From TPA_inf: Saccharomyces (Eukaryota): a stretch of 64,000 bases of DNA. Both the position numbers and the translations under genes were made by a program. The notes under the pieces are model-generated. The model searched no databases. It saw nothing but the letters and a program-made list of their open reading frames with translations, and was not told the origin of the DNA. Below, in pieces: positions 14,834 through 40,396 of this stretch (within the stretch, counting starts at the first letter, position 1; every line of letters starts with the position of its first letter). The stretch covers positions 320,001 through 384,000 of the forward strand of contig BK006942.2 in the NCBI GenBank assembly GCA_000146045.2, written 5' to 3'.

Positions 14834-15529
<696 letters not shown>

Positions 15530-15665: not shown

Positions 15666-16212
15666 TCATAAATATTTATATACAAATGGGAAAGTACTTA
15701 ACGATCCGACTTGATCAATATCAAATATCGTGGCCTGGTTTACATTGAGAACGGGCACTATTTCTTTGGACGAAATGTTGCTTAGGCAAATTTTGAAGTG
15801 AGACATTGCTCGAGAATTTGTTACGTAGACTAAGTCAGCATCGCCAATGATCATTAAGCAATTGGTCGTCTCAGATGTGATCCTGCAATTATGAGTCCTT
15901 TCAAAATTAGATACACACTCTTGGGAAAACTCAACTAAGTATTTGGTGTGAGGAATCTCTTATCGATGCGTATACCTTGTAGTCGCAAACGTTATAAAAT
16001 TTTGTAATTTTGGCGAAATGGCACGGATTGGTTAAAATTGTCGGGCTCATATGCGGTAGCGCTAAGTCCTGCTTGGTCAAGCTAGGAATTACATGGCCAG
16101 AGGGATGATATTGATCATGCTCCGAGTTGTCTTCAATTAATGCCTTTATCCATGGTTGTAGAAAAACTGAGTCTGTTGGCTTTGAATGAGACTCCAGAAT
16201 TACTTTCGGCAT
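15666..16212 (-). CDS. EST3: EST3 telomerase subunit, encoded by two overlapping frames joined by +1 programmed ribosomal frameshifting (181 aa product). ORF1 spans 16212 down to the TGA at 15931..15933. Translation continues in the +1 frame to the stop at 15666..15668.
   Basis: The upstream frame (93 codons, [21 protein letters not shown]...SSHQIL) ends in CTT-AGT-TGA (plus-strand TCAACTAAG at 15931..15939). This is the classic yeast +1 slip heptamer CUU-AGU-U, also used by Ty1 and ABP140. The +1 frame continues ...[24 protein letters not shown]...FVYKYL. Confidence 0.85.
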
Positions 16213-16348
16213 TGTTTACTTGTTATCCCGATTTGTACCCAGGATTTACAGCTTTTAATTCATTATCTATGGTCAACTTTTGCTGTCTAGTTTCATATTT
16301 ACTCGCTACCGTTTCACCAACTGTAGTCATCAGTTATGGTAAAAAAAT

Positions 16349-16420
16349 CTCCGCGACGGGGAATTGAACCCCGATCTGGCACGCGACAAGCGCCCATTCT
16401 GACCATTAAACTATCACGGA
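16349..16420 (-). tRNA. tD(GUC): tRNA-Asp (anticodon GUC), second copy, sequence-identical to the copy at 4303..4374
   Basis: Identical 72-nt sequence on the minus strand. An A7/T7 run lies immediately 3' on the minus strand. No LTR is detectable upstream of this copy. Confidence 0.95.
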
Positions 16421-19225
16421 TTTGTTTCTATGAAAATTTCGTTTATTTGTATAGTATATGTTTTTTTAAAATATAATGAGAATCTGGTAGAAAAGTGTTG
16501 ATAACTAGCAGTTTAAAACGTATCATTTGTTGAAATAAGTACCAACTATCATCCGTCGACTAGTACTCACACAACTATTGAGAAATTCGTAAGTTTTGTA
16601 AAACTGTTGGATACCGTTGCTGTTGAAGGCTATAGTAATAGGCATACAAAATTAGCGGAAGTTTACCTTGGAAATATATCCACAAAAGGGAAACGATATT
16701 TCCTCATAATAATATTGTAATTTCTTTTTCTTTTTATATGTTTCATTATCCTATACATTACCAATACTTGCATTTGAGCATTCATTAAATCTGATGGGTA
16801 CATCTCAATCTTTCTGTCATCTTTTTATAGCATATATGGTAACATGCTAGTAGTATGAATACTAGTCGATATACGTAAATAAATTTTCATTTTAAAATGG
16901 ATATGCCTAATCTGATAGATTCTATTAGCTGATTTTTCTACTACTTTTCATGTTCGTTTTTCAATAATTTGCAAGTTATATATCTTTGCCTCCGCTATAC
17001 CGTGATGAAGGTTAATGCGTAAGTTGCAGGCGAGGCATGATATGGACCACAACCCAGTTCGAACATAAAGAACTGAAAAACCATGAGCTGTTTGATTAAT
17101 TCAAAACAGCTGCTCACAATTTGGCCCAAGTTCAAACCTTTGTCTTTGAAGCATGGAACGTGCCGTTATTTTCATGCTAGTGTAATTTTTGCCTGTTTCA
17201 TCCCTCCCATCAAAAAATTCATCACGAAGTGCTAAAGGAAAACAAAAAAAATATCAAAGAGAGGAGACGGCTTAAAAGCCCTTATTCAATTGAAGAAATC
17301 CCCTGACCTCTGCAAAAAATCTATCGTTTATTTTATTTCTTTGTCTTACGTAACAAATTTATTTTCTGGGATGATGTCAATTCTATTTGGCACGCGAGTC
17401 ATCGTCTATATAAGGAGGTAACGAGGTCCTTGTATATTTGATGATCCTCACTATCAACACGTCGAGGGACGGTTGGTGACGAACTCAACTTATGTTATAG
17501 TTTTGGACCACTCTTTTCCTTGAAAAATTACAGGCATTATACGCAGTCCTGGGGCAGGAGCGCTTCGATCATTAGCATAACAGGATCACGGTTATCACCT
17601 GTTTTGTTATAATTCATGGCCTTTAGGTCATGACGTAAAATAATCGGAGTGAAAAAATGAAATCAAAGGCTATCATTTTTAGGGGAACTAAAGCACAAGG
17701 ATTTGAAGGCGTAGTGAAATAATGAATAATAGATAATCTATGGACCGAACACAGACGTATTTAAAGACAATACAAGGCCATTAATTCCCTTCGGAGGGCT
17801 CCCGATGGGAGGATTCTTAGCATGCTCTTTCTAGCCAACAGTATCACTTTCATCAGAAAACGGAAGCCTCCAAAAAGCTACGCTAAACGCTTTTTTGTTT
17901 TGGATTATCGCAGAAAATTGGTGACATTCTTGATTAAGAATAAACGGTGACTAGCAAGAAAAGGACATGTCAGGTACCAGTAAAGTCCGATTTAAGATCA
18001 AATCAGCGCCTTTAAAGAATCTTGAGATCTTAGTAATCCCGATGGAAGGAAAGAGGTAAACAAACGAATAACTTAACCCTTAAGATGATTCTATACATAG
18101 CATGATCTATCCAAGGAACGACCGACGCCCTTAAAAGGGTTCTGCTCAGATTTCGTTAAATACCCGGACCATCGTAGATGATTGTTTTTACTCTCCCCTA
18201 ACGATGTACTATGCCATAATAAGCATTTTTTTTTTCTTTCTTCACTGCAGCTCTGCTTTGAAAACACTACATCTAAGGCGCTGACGCCAACGCCCAGACT
18301 AAATCATCATATAATATCAAACGCCCAACAAAATATTAGAAATAGCTCAACAATAGAGCGCCAAAAGTTTACCGGAACGAACCATCATTGTTTACAGGCA
18401 AGCACCCATTTGGAAGGGTACGTAAACTAAATAAATAAGACAAGAAATTTTTTTTATATCTGGAATTTCCTTTGCATTTTAGTGATCCCACCATTACAGA
18501 TAACTAAACCAGGATAAAAAACAAAAATAATGACATTAATGATACCTTAACTAACGTATAGCAAGCGAAGCAACCACCCATCAGATTTTTGTCCCCGTTT
18601 GGAAACTGGAATGCTATGACCACTTTTATCACTACAGCTAACCACTTGTCGGAATGAAGATACGAAAGAGAAATCTTTATTGGACCACTTTTTCTTTCGC
18701 TAGAGGTCCTACCTAGCGTATTGCACCCAAGTGATTATTGCGACCTCTGAGTGTCAGAAACTTACGAAGTAAAATTCATAGTTGTGCCTTTCGTCAAGAA
18801 TCGGAAAGCGTAAAAATAGGCTACGGTCTTTGTCAAGGCGAAATTTTGGAGATTTCAGACGCATGATACCAGCAGTTTTTGGTAATATACTTTTTCAGGT
18901 AAAAGCTTTCTACGGCCACTGAAAGTAATGCAGAAGCTTAAGGCTACAGATGAAATGGCCGACCCAAACTAACCAAGCACAACATCAATTACAGAACCGA
19001 CAATCGAAAATCCTAAAAAAAAAGAACATCGAGTGAACTTTTCGTTATCTCAAAGCTTTAAAGTTAAAAGTGGCAGAAGCCTTGGCTATTCTGTTTCTCT
19101 CTTAGATTCTCGCACGACAGCATCGAGCGAAGTTGCAAAACCATATATTTCAGTTCTCTAAACGATCTTTCCCCGAACTCCAATCGAAATAGACTTAACC
19201 CGCAACATAACTGACATTCTTCCTC

Positions 19226-19250
19226 TTTTTTTTTTTTTTTTTTTTTTTTT
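19226..19250 (+). promoter_or_regulatory. 25-nt poly(dT) tract about 95 bp upstream of the FAA3 ATG, a likely nucleosome-excluding promoter element
   Basis: An uninterrupted T25 run seen directly. Poly(dA:dT) tracts are established nucleosome-depleting elements in yeast promoters. Confidence 0.6.
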
Positions 19251-19343
19251 GCTATTTGCTTTCTGCATGCATAAAAGCGAGACTAGCGTATTAACACTTT
19301 ATCACTTTCCCTCTCTTCCTGAAGCTGACATGAGCATACATCA

Positions 19344-21428
19344 ATGTCCGAACAACACTCTGTCGCAGTCGGTAAAGCTGCTAATGAGCACGAGACTGCC
19401 CCTAGGAGAAATGTTAGAGTCAAGAAGCGGCCCTTAATTAGACCATTGAACTCGTCAGCATCTACGCTGTATGAATTTGCCCTAGAGTGTTTCAACAAGG
19501 GTGGAAAACGAGATGGTATGGCTTGGAGAGATGTCATCGAGATTCATGAGACAAAGAAAACCATTGTGAGAAAGGTAGACGGCAAGGATAAATCTATAGA
19601 AAAGACATGGCTGTATTATGAAATGTCACCATATAAAATGATGACCTACCAGGAACTGATCTGGGTGATGCACGATATGGGCCGTGGGCTGGCAAAAATA
19701 GGCATCAAGCCCAATGGAGAACACAAATTCCACATCTTCGCATCTACTTCCCATAAATGGATGAAGATTTTCCTTGGTTGCATATCCCAGGGTATCCCCG
19801 TAGTAACCGCGTATGATACTTTGGGTGAGAGCGGTTTGATTCACTCCATGGTTGAAACCGAGTCTGCTGCTATTTTCACTGATAATCAATTATTGGCTAA
19901 AATGATAGTGCCTTTGCAATCTGCTAAAGATATCAAATTTCTTATCCATAACGAACCTATCGACCCCAATGACAGAAGACAAAACGGCAAACTTTACAAG
20001 GCTGCTAAGGATGCCATTAATAAGATCAGAGAAGTTAGGCCAGACATAAAAATTTATAGTTTTGAAGAAGTTGTCAAGATAGGTAAAAAAAGTAAAGATG
20101 AGGTCAAACTTCATCCACCTGAGCCAAAAGATTTGGCTTGTATCATGTACACCTCGGGCTCGATCAGTGCACCAAAAGGTGTAGTATTGACTCATTATAA
20201 TATTGTTTCGGGTATCGCTGGTGTAGGTCACAACGTCTTTGGATGGATCGGCTCTACAGACCGTGTTTTGTCGTTCTTGCCATTGGCTCATATTTTTGAA
20301 CTGGTCTTTGAATTCGAAGCCTTTTACTGGAACGGTATTCTTGGGTACGGTAGTGTTAAGACTTTGACTAATACTTCGACTCGTAATTGTAAGGGTGACC
20401 TGGTTGAGTTTAAGCCTACTATTATGATCGGTGTGGCTGCCGTTTGGGAAACTGTGAGAAAAGCTATTTTGGAAAAGATCAGCGATTTAACTCCCGTACT
20501 CCAAAAGATTTTTTGGTCTGCCTATAGTATGAAAGAAAAGAGTGTACCATGCACCGGGTTTTTAAGTCGTATGGTCTTCAAGAAAGTCAGACAAGCCACC
20601 GGTGGTCATCTTAAGTATATTATGAACGGTGGGTCTGCGATCAGTATTGATGCTCAGAAATTCTTTTCTATCGTCCTGTGTCCTATGATTATCGGTTACG
20701 GCCTTACTGAAACAGTTGCGAATGCTTGTGTTTTGGAGCCTGATCATTTCGAATATGGTATAGTTGGTGATCTTGTTGGATCGGTCACTGCCAAATTGGT
20801 GGATGTTAAGGACCTAGGTTATTATGCAAAAAACAATCAAGGTGAATTGCTTCTAAAGGGTGCGCCGGTCTGTTCTGAATATTATAAGAATCCAATAGAA
20901 ACGGCGGTCTCTTTCACTTACGATGGATGGTTTCGTACTGGTGATATTGTTGAATGGACTCCCAAGGGACAACTTAAAATTATTGATAGAAGAAAGAATT
21001 TGGTTAAAACCCTAAATGGTGAATATATTGCATTAGAAAAGTTAGAATCTGTTTACAGGTCAAACTCCTATGTGAAAAATATCTGTGTTTATGCCGATGA
21101 AAGTAGGGTTAAACCGGTGGGTATTGTGGTACCCAACCCAGGACCCCTATCTAAATTTGCTGTCAAATTGCGTATTATGAAAAAGGGTGAAGACATCGAA
21201 AACTATATCCATGACAAAGCATTACGAAATGCTGTTTTCAAAGAGATGATCGCAACAGCCAAATCTCAAGGTTTGGTTGGTATTGAACTATTATGTGGTA
21301 TTGTTTTCTTTGATGAAGAATGGACACCTGAAAATGGCTTTGTCACATCTGCTCAAAAATTAAAGAGAAGAGAAATCTTAGCCGCTGTTAAATCAGAAGT
21401 CGAAAGGGTTTACAAAGAAAATTCTTAG
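19344..21428 (+). CDS. FAA3: FAA3, long-chain fatty acyl-CoA synthetase (694 aa)
   Basis: 694-aa ORF with an AMP-binding motif (YTSGSISAPKGVVLTH) and an acyl-CoA synthetase fold. Confidence 0.9.
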   Translation: MSEQHSVAVGKAANEHETAPRRNVRVKKRPLIRPLNSSASTLYEFALECFNKGGKRDGMAWRDVIEIHETKKTIVRKVDGKDKSIEKTWLYYEMSPYKMMTYQELIWVMHDMGRGLAKIGIKPNGEHKFHIFASTSHKWMKIFLGCISQGIPVVTAYDTLGESGLIHSMVETESAAIFTDNQLLAKMIVPLQSAKDIKFLIHNEPIDPNDRRQNGKLYKAAKDAINKIREVRPDIKIYSFEEVVKIGKKSKDEVKLHPPEPKDLACIMYTSGSISAPKGVVLTHYNIVSGIAGVGHNVFGWIGSTDRVLSFLPLAHIFELVFEFEAFYWNGILGYGSVKTLTNTSTRNCKGDLVEFKPTIMIGVAAVWETVRKAILEKISDLTPVLQKIFWSAYSMKEKSVPCTGFLSRMVFKKVRQATGGHLKYIMNGGSAISIDAQKFFSIVLCPMIIGYGLTETVANACVLEPDHFEYGIVGDLVGSVTAKLVDVKDLGYYAKNNQGELLLKGAPVCSEYYKNPIETAVSFTYDGWFRTGDIVEWTPKGQLKIIDRRKNLVKTLNGEYIALEKLESVYRSNSYVKNICVYADESRVKPVGIVVPNPGPLSKFAVKLRIMKKGEDIENYIHDKALRNAVFKEMIATAKSQGLVGIELLCGIVFFDEEWTPENGFVTSAQKLKRREILAAVKSEVERVYKENS

Positions 21429-25691: not shown

Positions 25692-27797
25692 ATGAAAATG
25701 AATCTGAAAAGGCTCGTAGTTACCTTCTTCTCATGCATCACCTTTCTGCTGAAATTCACTATAGCCGCCGCTGAACCACCAGAGGGCTTTCCAGAGCCCT
25801 TAAATCCAACAAACTTCAAAGAAGAGCTATCTAAGGGGCTGCATATTATTGACTTCTATAGTCCATACTGTCCGCACTGCAAACATTTAGCACCTGTTTG
25901 GATGGAAACATGGGAGGAGTTTAAAGAGGAGAGCAAAACACTGAACATAACATTTTCACAGGTTAACTGCATCGAGAGCGCCGATTTGTGTGGAGATGAA
26001 AATATTGAATACTTCCCTGAAATTAGACTTTATAACCCCTCAGGATACATCAAATCGTTCACTGAAACACCGAGGACCAAAGAATCATTAATTGCATTTG
26101 CACGCAGGGAGTCTATGGACCCAAATAACCTCGATACTGATCTGGATTCTGCTAAAAGTGAGAGCCAGTATCTCGAAGGCTTTGATTTTCTCGAGCTGAT
26201 CGCTGGTAAGGCGACTAGGCCACATTTGGTTTCCTTCTGGCCAACAAAAGATATGAAAAATAGCGATGATTCACTAGAATTCAAAAACTGTGACAAATGC
26301 CATGAATTCCAAAGGACTTGGAAGATCATTTCAAGACAGTTAGCCGTGGATGATATCAACACGGGCCACGTTAATTGCGAATCTAATCCAACAATCTGTG
26401 AAGAACTGGGCTTTGGCGACTTGGTGAAAATAACCAACCACAGAGCCGATAGAGAACCCAAGGTAGCATTAGTCCTACCCAATAAAACCTCAAATAATTT
26501 GTTCGACTATCCCAATGGCTACTCAGCGAAGTCAGATGGCTATGTAGATTTTGCCAGGAGGACTTTTACAAACAGTAAATTTCCCAATATAACAGAAGGG
26601 GAGCTCGAAAAAAAAGCAAACAGAGACATTGATTTTCTGCAAGAAAGGGGACGAGTAACTAATAATGATATCCATTTAGTTTTTTCATATGACCCCGAAA
26701 CTGTTGTTATTGAAGATTTTGACATTTTGGAGTATTTAATCGAGCCTTTGTCAAAAATTCCAAACATATATTTGCACCAAATTGACAAGAATCTAATAAA
26801 TTTGTCACGTAATCTTTTTGGAAGAATGTATGAAAAGATCAACTACGACGCCAGCCAAACTCAAAAGGTTTTTAACAAAGAATACTTTACTATGAATACG
26901 GTTACGCAACTCCCAACTTTTTTCATGTTTAAAGATGGTGATCCCATATCCTATGTTTTCCCCGGATACTCCACAACAGAAATGAGAAATATTGATGCCA
27001 TTATGGATTGGGTAAAAAAGTATTCTAATCCCTTAGTTACCGAAGTTGACTCTTCTAATTTGAAAAAATTAATTTCCTTCCAAACCAAGAGCTACAGTGA
27101 TTTAGCAATTCAGTTAATAAGTAGCACTGACCACAAACATATCAAAGGAAGCAACAAGCTTATTAAAAACTTGCTCCTCGCAAGTTGGGAGTATGAACAT
27201 ATTCGGATGGAAAATAACTTCGAAGAAATTAATGAGAGAAGGGCAAGGAAAGCAGACGGGATCAAGAAAATAAAGGAAAAAAAGGCTCCGGCTAACAAAA
27301 TTGTTGATAAAATGCGTGAAGAGATTCCCCATATGGATCAAAAAAAATTGTTATTAGGATATTTAGATATTTCAAAGGAGAAGAATTTTTTTAGAAAATA
27401 TGGTATTACTGGAGAATATAAAATTGGTGATGTGATTATCATTGATAAATCAAATAATTACTACTACAATAAAGATAATTTTGGCAACTCCTTGACTTCT
27501 AACAACCCTCAATTGCTGAGAGAAGCATTCGTGTCCTTAAATATTCCATCAAAAGCTCTATACAGCTCTAAGTTGAAGGGGAGATTGATAAATTCTCCAT
27601 TCCATAATGTCCTCAGTTTCCTAGACATAATCCACGGGAACGGCATGCCCGGTTACTTAATTGTTATTGTTTTGTTTATCGCAATACTCAAAGGTCCATC
27701 TATTTACAGAAGATACAAAGTAAGGAAACACTATAGGGCGAAAAGGAACGCTGTCGGTATCCTAGGAAATATGGAGAAAAAAAAAAATCAAGATTAA
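25692..27797 (+). CDS. EPS1: EPS1, ER membrane protein-disulfide-isomerase family member (701 aa)
   Basis: Signal peptide, a thioredoxin-like CPHC active site (YSPYCPHCKHLAP), a later thioredoxin-like domain, a C-terminal TM helix and a KKKNQD tail. Confidence 0.85.
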   Translation: MKMNLKRLVVTFFSCITFLLKFTIAAAEPPEGFPEPLNPTNFKEELSKGLHIIDFYSPYCPHCKHLAPVWMETWEEFKEESKTLNITFSQVNCIESADLCGDENIEYFPEIRLYNPSGYIKSFTETPRTKESLIAFARRESMDPNNLDTDLDSAKSESQYLEGFDFLELIAGKATRPHLVSFWPTKDMKNSDDSLEFKNCDKCHEFQRTWKIISRQLAVDDINTGHVNCESNPTICEELGFGDLVKITNHRADREPKVALVLPNKTSNNLFDYPNGYSAKSDGYVDFARRTFTNSKFPNITEGELEKKANRDIDFLQERGRVTNNDIHLVFSYDPETVVIEDFDILEYLIEPLSKIPNIYLHQIDKNLINLSRNLFGRMYEKINYDASQTQKVFNKEYFTMNTVTQLPTFFMFKDGDPISYVFPGYSTTEMRNIDAIMDWVKKYSNPLVTEVDSSNLKKLISFQTKSYSDLAIQLISSTDHKHIKGSNKLIKNLLLASWEYEHIRMENNFEEINERRARKADGIKKIKEKKAPANKIVDKMREEIPHMDQKKLLLGYLDISKEKNFFRKYGITGEYKIGDVIIIDKSNNYYYNKDNFGNSLTSNNPQLLREAFVSLNIPSKALYSSKLKGRLINSPFHNVLSFLDIIHGNGMPGYLIVIVLFIAILKGPSIYRRYKVRKHYRAKRNAVGILGNMEKKKNQD

Positions 27798-37414: not shown

Positions 37415-40396
37415 TCAAAAATCAGAATCTGAGCCCAGTATGTCATCTAATTCTGCGTTCGATAAGGTAAAAGATTGGGATGAATCATGGTTGACACTGT
37501 TGTTATCGACTTGACTTTTATCGTTAACTTTTACAAATTTTTTTTCGTCTCGTAACATGCCTCTCGCCAAACATTTAGTATAGTTCATATCAATTGTCCT
37601 CTTCTTATTATCATTACTCTCGTCGTTAAATAACGTAATGATTTTTGAAACTTTGTGACAATGCGGAACTTTTACCCCTTTGGTGTATTGTACAAAATTG
37701 GGCTCCACATCGAAGGAAACACCTTCTGGGATATAGCGGTTTCTGAAAAAATTCCAATCGTCCAAACTCAATACCATGTTATTCTTGTCAACAGTACAGC
37801 TCTTTTCTTTTTCAAGGTTGTGTTGATTTCCTCGGATGTCTTTCACATTTTTCTCGATTTTAGTTGGAAGACCACAATCATTCACAAATAAAGCCATATT
37901 AGGGCGTTCAAAATTATGAAGTGGCTTGAGTGTGGTAAGACTTTCGCCAGTGCGAATAATGGCAGTTTCCAAATCTTTTTGGCATCCATTCTGCCCTTCC
38001 GCAATGAAAACATTATTATCATCACTGACTTCTTCATCTTCAGTTTCTAATGAGGAGGAAGCTTCCTCGGTTGAATCATTCTCCAGATTATCCAAAGCTT
38101 TAAAAATCTTCCGCTTCTTACTTGGGTTTTCATTACTCGTTACTAGTTGTTTCCCGCCACTTTCATTCACCAAGAACTTATTAATTAAAGTGCTTGCACT
38201 AACAATACTGGTCTCAACATTATCAGGCATAAAGAACTTCTTCGGTTTTTTATTTTCCTGAACTCTCTTCTTCTTTGTTATGGCTTTTTTTGGCTTCACC
38301 TTTTTGCCCATCATACACTGAGTCGCATAACGAATAACTTCGTCAACATCTTCCATTTCATTAATTATTTCGTTTTCATCATTAATCGTGATCAATGTCT
38401 CGTGACATTCCGGAATAATGTCTTCAGGGATTATCCGATCTGATTTTTTATAGTCAATGCATTGCTTGGATATAAGCGCTTGCAGGGTTGAATAGTCTTC
38501 CATAGCACGCTCGAATTTGTATGATTCATTACTGCTAAACAGTAGTACTATCTTACCATCTCGTTTTCTGCCTGTTCTACCCATACGCTGAATATTTTTG
38601 ATTGGACTACTTGTAGTATCATAACAGATTATTAAATCAACTTCTCCGATATCCAAACCTTCTTCTCCAATTGATGTACAAACGAGAACATTATATTCAC
38701 CCTTTTTGAAATTATGGATAACCTCTTTTTGCATTTTTTGGTTCATTCCGCTAATCTGAGCCTCTTCAGAGCTCCCCGTTCGTCTGGCACTTCTTTCAAG
38801 TTTATCATTCGCCGCTCTCTTAGTTCGTTCAGCTTCCAAAAATTTCTCTTGCTCTTGCCTATGCAATCTCTCTACCTTCTTCCTTCCCTTTGGCGCATGT
38901 TTTCTTGTGTATTTGACCTCATCAAAACCTTCTTTTGCACGAGCTTGTCCAATAAAAATATGAGGCCTGATTTGATCGTCAGCTACCGAGTCTATGAACT
39001 TCACAATTTCAAGTGCGCTTTCTCTTAATTCTGTAAAAATAATAACCCTCGAGTCGGAACCCCTTTTCTGAAAAAAGTCCATTAGTTCATCTCTAACACA
39101 TTGTAACTTCCCATGACCGACAAACTTTGGATCACTTAAATAATTTTCGCATTGATTTTTGATGTTTTTCAAAATCGGATGGTAATAAAACTCAGCTGCA
39201 ATTTTATTAGTAGATTTTTTAAGATTATATTTCGTAGTGAATTCTGTACATTTATTCTGGAAGTAATTGAAAAATGTCCTTATTCCATAAATTTTTAATC
39301 TCTTTAGCATTTGACCCACATTGTTCAATAACTGTAAAATAAAGAAGTTCCTCCACTTAATTCCTTCAGGTATAGTAGGGTTAGCAATAATTTTTTGGCT
39401 TTGTTGCATGGCTTTGAAGGCGTTTATTTGTGAAGGGTCACATTCCTCATATATACCGAGTTCAATTGCCTGTTGAAGCACTGGTTTGACGGCCATACCT
39501 AATTGTTCGATTATGTCTTCAATTTCCAACAAAAGGGGCACTTCAATTTTTTCCTTTTTTCTTTTCTTCATATATTTCACGATATCCATGCTTTCTTCAG
39601 TCCTAATTTCAATCTTGGAAATATCTAAGTTATTAACCACTTCTTGGACACCTTCCAGGTCAGAGGCTGGTGTAGCGGTCAATGCTAATAATCTGTATGA
39701 TGAATTGAACCTATCTATGAATTTTACCACATTTGTATACGCAGAGGAGCCAGTAGCTCTGTGAGCTTCATCGATGACAAGACATACAATATCCTTAGGA
39801 TCCAATACACCCCTCTTCAAGTCATTCTCCACTACTTGCGGTGTGGCAAAGAAAACTCTCTTATTGGCCCAAATTTCTTCTCTATTTTTCCTGCTTTTAT
39901 CGAGTAATATAGCAGTTTGATCCGAAGGTATTCCTGTTATACCTAAGCATGCCTTAATTTGCTGGGCTACCAAAGGTCTTGTTGGAGCAGTAAAGATTAT
40001 TTTGGCTTTTTTGGTCCAACGAAAATAATTTAACATTACTGTACTGGCAATGAACGTTTTACCCATACCCGTTGGGATGGCGCATAACGTATTTTGAAAC
40101 AGTGATTTGTGAACAATTGTATACTGATAATCCCTTACCTCGTAATTTGTAGGGTACACGTAGAACGACAAAGCATCGTAATCAAGCTCATGATGAGTGG
40201 GTCCAAAACTGACATCTCTTTGAATTTCTTCGTACACAGTTTTCTGCCCAGGTAAAACGTTATCATGAAGGTCTTTTTGAACTGGTACAGCACGTCTCGT
40301 TATAGTTTCCTTCACAGATTTATTGATAGCCTTTTCATACAGTTTATCCAGCTCGTCATCTTCGAAATCACTAAAGTAATCATCTGCACTAGCCAT
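37415..40396 (-). CDS. MPH1: MPH1, FANCM-family 3'-5' DNA helicase (DEAH box, superfamily 2) (993 aa)
   Basis: 993-aa ORF with helicase motifs I (PTGMGKT), II (DEAH) and VI (QRMGRTGR). Confidence 0.9.
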   Translation of the reverse strand: MASADDYFSDFEDDELDKLYEKAINKSVKETITRRAVPVQKDLHDNVLPGQKTVYEEIQRDVSFGPTHHELDYDALSFYVYPTNYEVRDYQYTIVHKSLFQNTLCAIPTGMGKTFIASTVMLNYFRWTKKAKIIFTAPTRPLVAQQIKACLGITGIPSDQTAILLDKSRKNREEIWANKRVFFATPQVVENDLKRGVLDPKDIVCLVIDEAHRATGSSAYTNVVKFIDRFNSSYRLLALTATPASDLEGVQEVVNNLDISKIEIRTEESMDIVKYMKKRKKEKIEVPLLLEIEDIIEQLGMAVKPVLQQAIELGIYEECDPSQINAFKAMQQSQKIIANPTIPEGIKWRNFFILQLLNNVGQMLKRLKIYGIRTFFNYFQNKCTEFTTKYNLKKSTNKIAAEFYYHPILKNIKNQCENYLSDPKFVGHGKLQCVRDELMDFFQKRGSDSRVIIFTELRESALEIVKFIDSVADDQIRPHIFIGQARAKEGFDEVKYTRKHAPKGRKKVERLHRQEQEKFLEAERTKRAANDKLERSARRTGSSEEAQISGMNQKMQKEVIHNFKKGEYNVLVCTSIGEEGLDIGEVDLIICYDTTSSPIKNIQRMGRTGRKRDGKIVLLFSSNESYKFERAMEDYSTLQALISKQCIDYKKSDRIIPEDIIPECHETLITINDENEIINEMEDVDEVIRYATQCMMGKKVKPKKAITKKKRVQENKKPKKFFMPDNVETSIVSASTLINKFLVNESGGKQLVTSNENPSKKRKIFKALDNLENDSTEEASSSLETEDEEVSDDNNVFIAEGQNGCQKDLETAIIRTGESLTTLKPLHNFERPNMALFVNDCGLPTKIEKNVKDIRGNQHNLEKEKSCTVDKNNMVLSLDDWNFFRNRYIPEGVSFDVEPNFVQYTKGVKVPHCHKVSKIITLFNDESNDNKKRTIDMNYTKCLARGMLRDEKKFVKVNDKSQVDNNSVNHDSSQSFTLSNAELDDILGSDSDF

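Follow-up and report, generated by a model that had tools for sequence, protein, structure and literature searches.

In the 64,000-nucleotide stretch of Saccharomyces DNA that we analyzed (the window), the minus strand between positions 16212 and 15666 carries two overlapping open reading frames. The first, ORF1 (15931..16212, minus strand), starts with an ATG at 16212 and runs in frame 0 for 93 codons to a TGA (15931..15933), with a 3′ end that reads CAC CAA ATA CTT AGT TGA (HQILS*) on the minus strand. The second, ORF2 (15666..15935, minus strand), lies in the +1 frame, opens at 15935 with GTT GAG TTT TCC CAA GAG (VEFSQE), and continues for 89 codons (residues 93 to 181) to its own TGA at 15668..15666, 265 nt past the frame-0 stop; its first ATG occurs only at residue 120 of the joined product. 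The frame-0 TGA overlaps the GTT-GAG of the +1 frame and was kept in all orthologues that we examined. Since a TAA closes the +1 frame upstream, leaving a frame overlap of 29 nt, a change of frame must fall inside 15959..15931. This interval contains the heptamer CTT-AGT-T (CUU_AGU_U; 15933..15939, minus strand), in which CTT (15939..15937), codon 92 of frame 0, is the P-site codon and is followed by an A, AGT (15936..15934) is the frame-0 A-site codon, and GUU is the +1 A-site codon. The original prediction had named a 93-codon ORF ending in CTT-AGT-TGA, a +1 frame open to a stop 265 nt further on, and a slip heptamer at these seven bases, and all three agree with the sequence, the heptamer exactly to the base. 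A naive ORF caller had also been expected to split the gene, and the mechanical ORF list does break it into a 93-aa piece and an ATG-started 62-aa piece (15854..15666).

Product identity and context of the EST3 locus

ORF1 encodes residues 1 to 92 of the joined product and, when no shift occurs, adds a terminal Ser. Removal of the A at 15936 (minus strand), the base that would be skipped without being decoded, joins these 92 codons to the 89 of ORF2 and yields a contiguous protein of 181 codons. This protein is identical to PDB chain 9swn_C at 181 of 181 residues (residues 1 to 181, E = 3e-122) and to 2m9v_A at 169 of 169 (residues 13 to 181), both chains being deposited under the name "Telomere replication protein EST3." The +1-shifted translation had been predicted to give just such a contiguous 181-aa Est3. 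The joined protein also scores 167.8 bits in Pfam family PF10341 (TPP1/Est3 OB fold), where the cut-off is 26.5, and its residues 18 to 175 span profile positions 1 to 154 of 158. This single OB-fold domain is split at profile positions 70/71, with ORF1 alone covering positions 1 to 70 and ORF2 alone covering positions 71 to 154. Because one domain is cut exactly at the frame change, neither ORF alone can encode the folded protein, in keeping with the earlier claim that neither gives a full product. The layout is that of a Ty1-type +1 site: the ORFs overlap, the downstream one is in the +1 frame, neither codes for the full protein, and the in-frame CUU can re-pair on UUA.

We therefore identify the locus, with a probability of about 97%, as Saccharomyces cerevisiae EST3 (YIL009C-A), which encodes the telomerase regulatory OB-fold subunit in two overlapping frames joined by programmed +1 ribosomal frameshifting. 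The basis for this assignment in the sequence consists of the two-frame layout, the identity of the product with Est3, the splitting of the domain at the junction, and the deep conservation of the site described below. The EST3 frameshift has been known since 1997, and nothing found here differs from the described gene. Later papers credit Morris and Lundblad (1997) with the programmed +1 frameshift in S. cerevisiae EST3, and the literature states that expression of the gene needs a +1 shift at CUU-AGU-U, just before the UGA at codon 94, to give a protein of 181 aa.

The heptamer is not distinctive by itself. The window contains 6 copies of CTTAGTT compared to 11.1 expected from shuffles, a count below expectation, so the motif alone provides no evidence and it is its position and conservation that carry significance. 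The copy in EST3 is in frame and closes ORF1, where one domain goes on in the +1 frame. The other five copies are at 27032, 38819, 50895, 57286, and 60810 (plus strand), and no plausible gene uses the CTT of any of them as a codon; that at 38819 falls within a 104-aa ORF that is antisense to a 993-aa ORF. In-frame shifty heptamers are reportedly avoided in yeast, and the low count and the lack of in-frame use among these five copies fit this report, with a number far too small for testing it.

Upstream of EST3, at a distance of 137 nt from its start codon, is a tRNA-Asp(GTC) gene (16349..16420, minus strand). Beyond this tRNA gene, ORFs of at least 150 aa are absent from an interval of about 2.9 kb (16421..19343), which extends to the next long ORF, of 694 aa (19344..21428, plus strand). 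The synIX paper places a Ty1 long terminal repeat (LTR) between the tRNA-Asp gene and this next long ORF, and a 22-nt inverted repeat pair (16556-16577 and 16848-16869) is also present between them. In that paper, deletion of the tRNA-Asp gene together with the adjacent Ty1 LTR led to lower Est3p, shorter telomeres, and a growth defect at 37 °C, and its authors blame aberrant upstream transcripts for these effects.

On the downstream side, the convergent neighbor in the window is a 215-aa ORF (14882..15529, plus strand), and its counterpart beside EST3 in the unannotated contig L009 is an AhpC-TSA/Redoxin protein. In Zygosaccharomyces, Naumovozyma, Torulaspora, Kazachstania, and Eremothecium, EST3 is followed instead by an adaptor-complex mu-subunit gene (PF00928; L004 to L008 and L011, and 2706..4049 in L002/L003). 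In Zygosaccharomyces this PF00928 gene lies between EST3 and the peroxiredoxin gene, and it is missing at that position in the window.

Public gene calls at this locus contain several errors. A model from S. cerevisiae Y55 (P0002, 116 aa) consists of an ORF over the tRNA-Asp gene (16314..16406, minus strand, MGACRVPDRGSIPRRGDFF...) fused to the +1-frame half of EST3 (15666..15935, minus strand), a fusion that looks like an annotation artifact caused by the frameshift. Four gene calls on unannotated assemblies (P0005, P0013, P0014, and P0015, among L009 to L012) are half-genes.

Conservation of the shift site across yeasts

We found Est3 homologues by sequence and profile searches and then retrieved the encoding DNA, which gave orthologue DNA from 10 further yeast lineages. 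These were the annotated genomes of Naumovozyma dairenensis, N. castellii, Kazachstania africana, Zygosaccharomyces bailii, Z. parabailii, Z. mellis, Torulaspora globosa, and Eremothecium gossypii (8 in all) and 2 unannotated assemblies. In 10 of the 10 lineages, CTT-AGT-TGA is found at the same place, ending the frame-0 ORF. The two contigs from unannotated assemblies that have these nine bases come from a second Saccharomyces-like yeast, whose ORF2 fragment is ~89% identical to the EST3 of the window, and from one other yeast. All eight annotated gene models span 3n + 1 bases, and in seven of them nothing but a +1 join at the site yields the deposited protein. The deposited proteins follow annotation, so they do not constitute independent evidence for the junction peptide. 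In the exception, the Z. mellis model (P0010, 150 aa), the site is intact but a simple +1 join does not reproduce the protein; this model is most likely an annotation workaround.

We compared 99 nt around the site in 8 sequences, the window and 7 orthologues, with Z. parabailii omitted as a near-duplicate of Z. bailii. Apart from the 9-nt stretch CTTAGTTGA, this alignment has no run of more than 2 invariant nt. Among the 32 third-codon positions that we examined, the only ones that never vary are those of CTT (Leu, an amino acid with six codons) and GTT (Val, with four), while each of the remaining positions has 2 to 4 different bases across the 8 sequences. The conservation of the shift site thus exceeds what the protein sequence needs, since flanking synonymous sites vary freely. 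At the protein level, the invariant residues are R85, D86, S87, Q90, I91, and L92 in frame 0 and V93, E94, and F95 in the +1 frame; the invariance of L92 in the one frame and V93 in the other places the shift between them.

Our profile search returned no single-frame orthologues. One gene call, P0011 (L012, 182..790), was considered as a candidate and rejected: in it the frame-0 TGA is read as Trp and the call continues out of frame, and the underlying Zygosaccharomyces-like gene has a normal site. In yeasts whose divergence predates the Kluyveromyces/Saccharomycetaceae split, EST3 is reportedly expressed without frameshifting, and the presence of the site across yeasts has been found to correlate with the tRNA-Leu repertoire. 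The original prediction had treated single-frame orthologues as grounds for refuting the frameshift, which was too loose, since such orthologues are reported in distant yeasts and have no bearing on S. cerevisiae. According to a review, the frameshifts of OAZ1 and EST3 have been conserved for ~150 My in budding yeasts.

Mechanism of the shift and alternative readings

In the mechanism that the literature has established for EST3 (Morris and Lundblad 1997 and later work), ribosomes would initiate at the ATG at 16212 and decode 92 codons in frame 0, until CUU (Leu92) occupies the P site and slow decoding of AGU in the A site creates a pause. During this pause, the peptidyl-tRNA-Leu of a fraction of ribosomes would re-pair from CUU to the overlapping UUA, after which an abundant Val-tRNA would decode GUU in the +1 frame. 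These ribosomes would then read 89 codons in the +1 frame to the TGA at 15668..15666 and produce functional Est3 of 181 aa. The ribosomes that stay in frame 0 would decode AGU as Ser and terminate at UGA, releasing a 93-aa fragment with half of the OB fold. The identities of the tRNAs, the pause, the efficiency, and the need for the full-length product are taken from the literature. Read by itself, the DNA would be compatible with a +1 slip at CUU-A, with a skip of the C after AUA, which gives the same protein, or with a -2 shift, which gives one extra Leu. The choice of the A at 15936 as the skipped base rests on the published mechanism, as dropping the C at 15939 produces the same protein.

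Several published observations bear on these steps. A review reports that CUU is read by tRNA-Leu(UAG), whose unmodified wobble U and weak pairing favor re-pairing on UUA. A 2025 study explains the pause by AGU being decoded slowly through wobble pairing and gives a high gene copy number for the Val-tRNA. Thus, the predicted pause at AGU stands, while the rarity of this codon, which had been offered as its cause, does not agree with the literature. The same study found that a stem-loop from ABP140, a stimulator of P-site slippage, increases shifting at the EST3 heptamer from 15% to 40% and leaves GCG heptamers unaffected. Because the stem-loop boosts the EST3 heptamer and not the GCG heptamers, this result supports tRNA re-pairing at EST3, and with it the predicted slip of the P-site CUU tRNA onto UUA. 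The efficiency of the shift is ~10 to 15% in recent dual-luciferase reporters and ribosome profiling, and older literature disagrees with this value. The 2025 study reported ~15% for the heptamer alone and ~10% in its native context, the latter matching ribosome profiling. By recent estimates, ~85 to 90% of ribosomes terminate at the frame-0 UGA. In the synIX paper, Est3p with a C-terminal 3xFLAG in frame with ORF2 was detected by immunoblot.

A 3′ stimulator of 27 nt has also been reported for EST3. The literature places it in the downstream 27 nt, which would correspond to approximately 15906..15932 (minus strand) in the window. A review states that this element stimulates EST3 shifting 8-fold; the 2025 study found no stimulation by it and, in the native context, a 1.5-fold decrease. 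In our alignment, the bases of this stretch that never vary occupy the first or second position of their codons, as expected from the conserved peptide E-F-[ST]-x-x-C-V-S. We saw no extra synonymous-site constraint over the 27 nt, with third positions as variable as elsewhere in this small sample of 8 sequences. RNAalifold predicted 0 conserved pairs from -36 to +63 around the site in 8 species, and the only Rfam match was the neighboring tRNA. We thus found no structured 3′ stimulator, of the stem-loop or pseudoknot kind, at EST3.

Other explanations of the two-frame layout have to be weighed against a programmed shift. The frame break could stem from faulty sequencing or assembly, or from a pseudogenizing indel confined to this strain, in which case the true gene would be a single ORF. 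Single-base frame breaks are the commonest assembly artifact, and one orthologue record is labeled "LOW QUALITY PROTEIN." However, the 3n + 1 layout and the identical CTT AGT TGA are shared by independently sequenced genomes from at least six genera and by two unannotated assemblies. Both halves also retain conserved protein sequence, which is not expected of an error or a pseudogene, and we consider this explanation highly improbable. We give scarcely any weight to a joining of the two frames in the RNA itself, whether through splicing of a tiny intron, through editing, or through slippage during transcription, although some automated annotations (P0002 and probably the Z. mellis model, P0010) use a spliced model across the break. 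A GTATGT-like 5′ splice site and a TACTAAC-like branch point are absent from the gene, and a yeast intron would not fit into the overlap of 29 nt. Nor is there a homopolymer of 5 nt or more near the site, the sole such run in the gene being TTTTT at gene nt 47. In addition, reporters with the heptamer alone frameshift in the 2025 study, and ribosome profiling shows a frame change at the site.

The locus could instead encode two separate functional polypeptides, one of 93 aa from ORF1 and one from ORF2 whose translation begins at an internal ATG (Met120; the 62-aa ORF at 15854..15666). Both ORFs are present in the mechanical list, and since most ribosomes stop at the frame-0 UGA, cells presumably produce the 93-aa fragment. 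This account conflicts, however, with the continuity of the PF10341 OB fold across the junction (70/71) and with the solved Est3 structures, which contain residues of both frames in one chain. It also conflicts with the invariant residues V93-E94-F95...R110-I111-T112-S113-E114-T115, which belong to the +1 frame and precede any ATG of ORF2. We regard a pair of separate functional products as very unlikely. No sequence feature speaks against programmed frameshifting at EST3, which remains our reading of the locus.

Functional implications and relation to known frameshift sites

Telomerase action in vivo requires Est3, and according to the synIX paper telomere length is set by the Est3 level. A recoding step with an efficiency of ~10 to 15% is a plausible limiter of Est3 dosage, an idea already in the literature. 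In a review, a frame-corrected EST3 allele was without discernible growth effect in laboratory media. The conservation of the site over ~150 My argues for some selected role. One tentative suggestion is that the frameshift acts as a tuned throttle, with Est3 limiting for telomerase assembly and its level coupled to tRNA supply or growth state, or that the 93-aa product has a function of its own; we view this as possible but rather unlikely. The question has already been posed in the literature and is not a discovery from the window. The locus serves as a positive control, as a reading of raw sequence located with single-base precision a programmed +1 frameshift of a kind that few chromosomal yeast genes have. 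It also illustrates a practical hazard, since public gene calls at EST3 are often wrong (half-genes, a fusion over a tRNA gene, and TGA read-through).

When compared to known systems, the locus is the same gene as S. cerevisiae EST3 (YIL009C-A), with an identical protein, the heptamer CUU-AGU-U, the UGA at codon 94, and a length of 181 aa. It resembles the antizyme gene OAZ1 (GCG-UGA-C) in being a chromosomal yeast gene that requires +1 frameshifting. In OAZ1, the pause occurs on an A-site stop codon and is regulated by polyamines, whereas in EST3 it occurs on a sense codon, and the literature describes no regulator. With the Ty3 GAG3-POL3 site (GCG-AGU-U), EST3 has the A-site portion AGU-U in common, and for both a non-structural 3′ stimulator has been reported. 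The two differ in the P site, as the GCG of Ty3 cannot re-pair in the +1 frame and the Ty3 shift is believed to involve no slippage of the tRNA, unlike that of EST3; the ABP140 stem-loop likewise stimulates the EST3 heptamer and not that of Ty3. In the P site EST3 resembles Ty1 gag-pol, ABP140, and YFS1 (YPL034W), which have the same CUU and for which re-pairing of a tRNA-Leu onto UUA during an A-site pause is also proposed. Compared to their CUU-AGG-C, EST3 has AGU (Ser) rather than AGG (Arg) in the A site and GUU (Val) rather than GGC (Gly) as the +1 codon, its heptamer shifts with ~15% efficiency rather than ~40%, and a stop codon directly follows its A-site codon. Thus, the original prediction was right to call the heptamer a yeast +1 site but not a canonical one: the canonical site is the CUU-AGG-C of Ty1 and ABP140, and that of EST3 is a derivative which shares its A site with Ty3.
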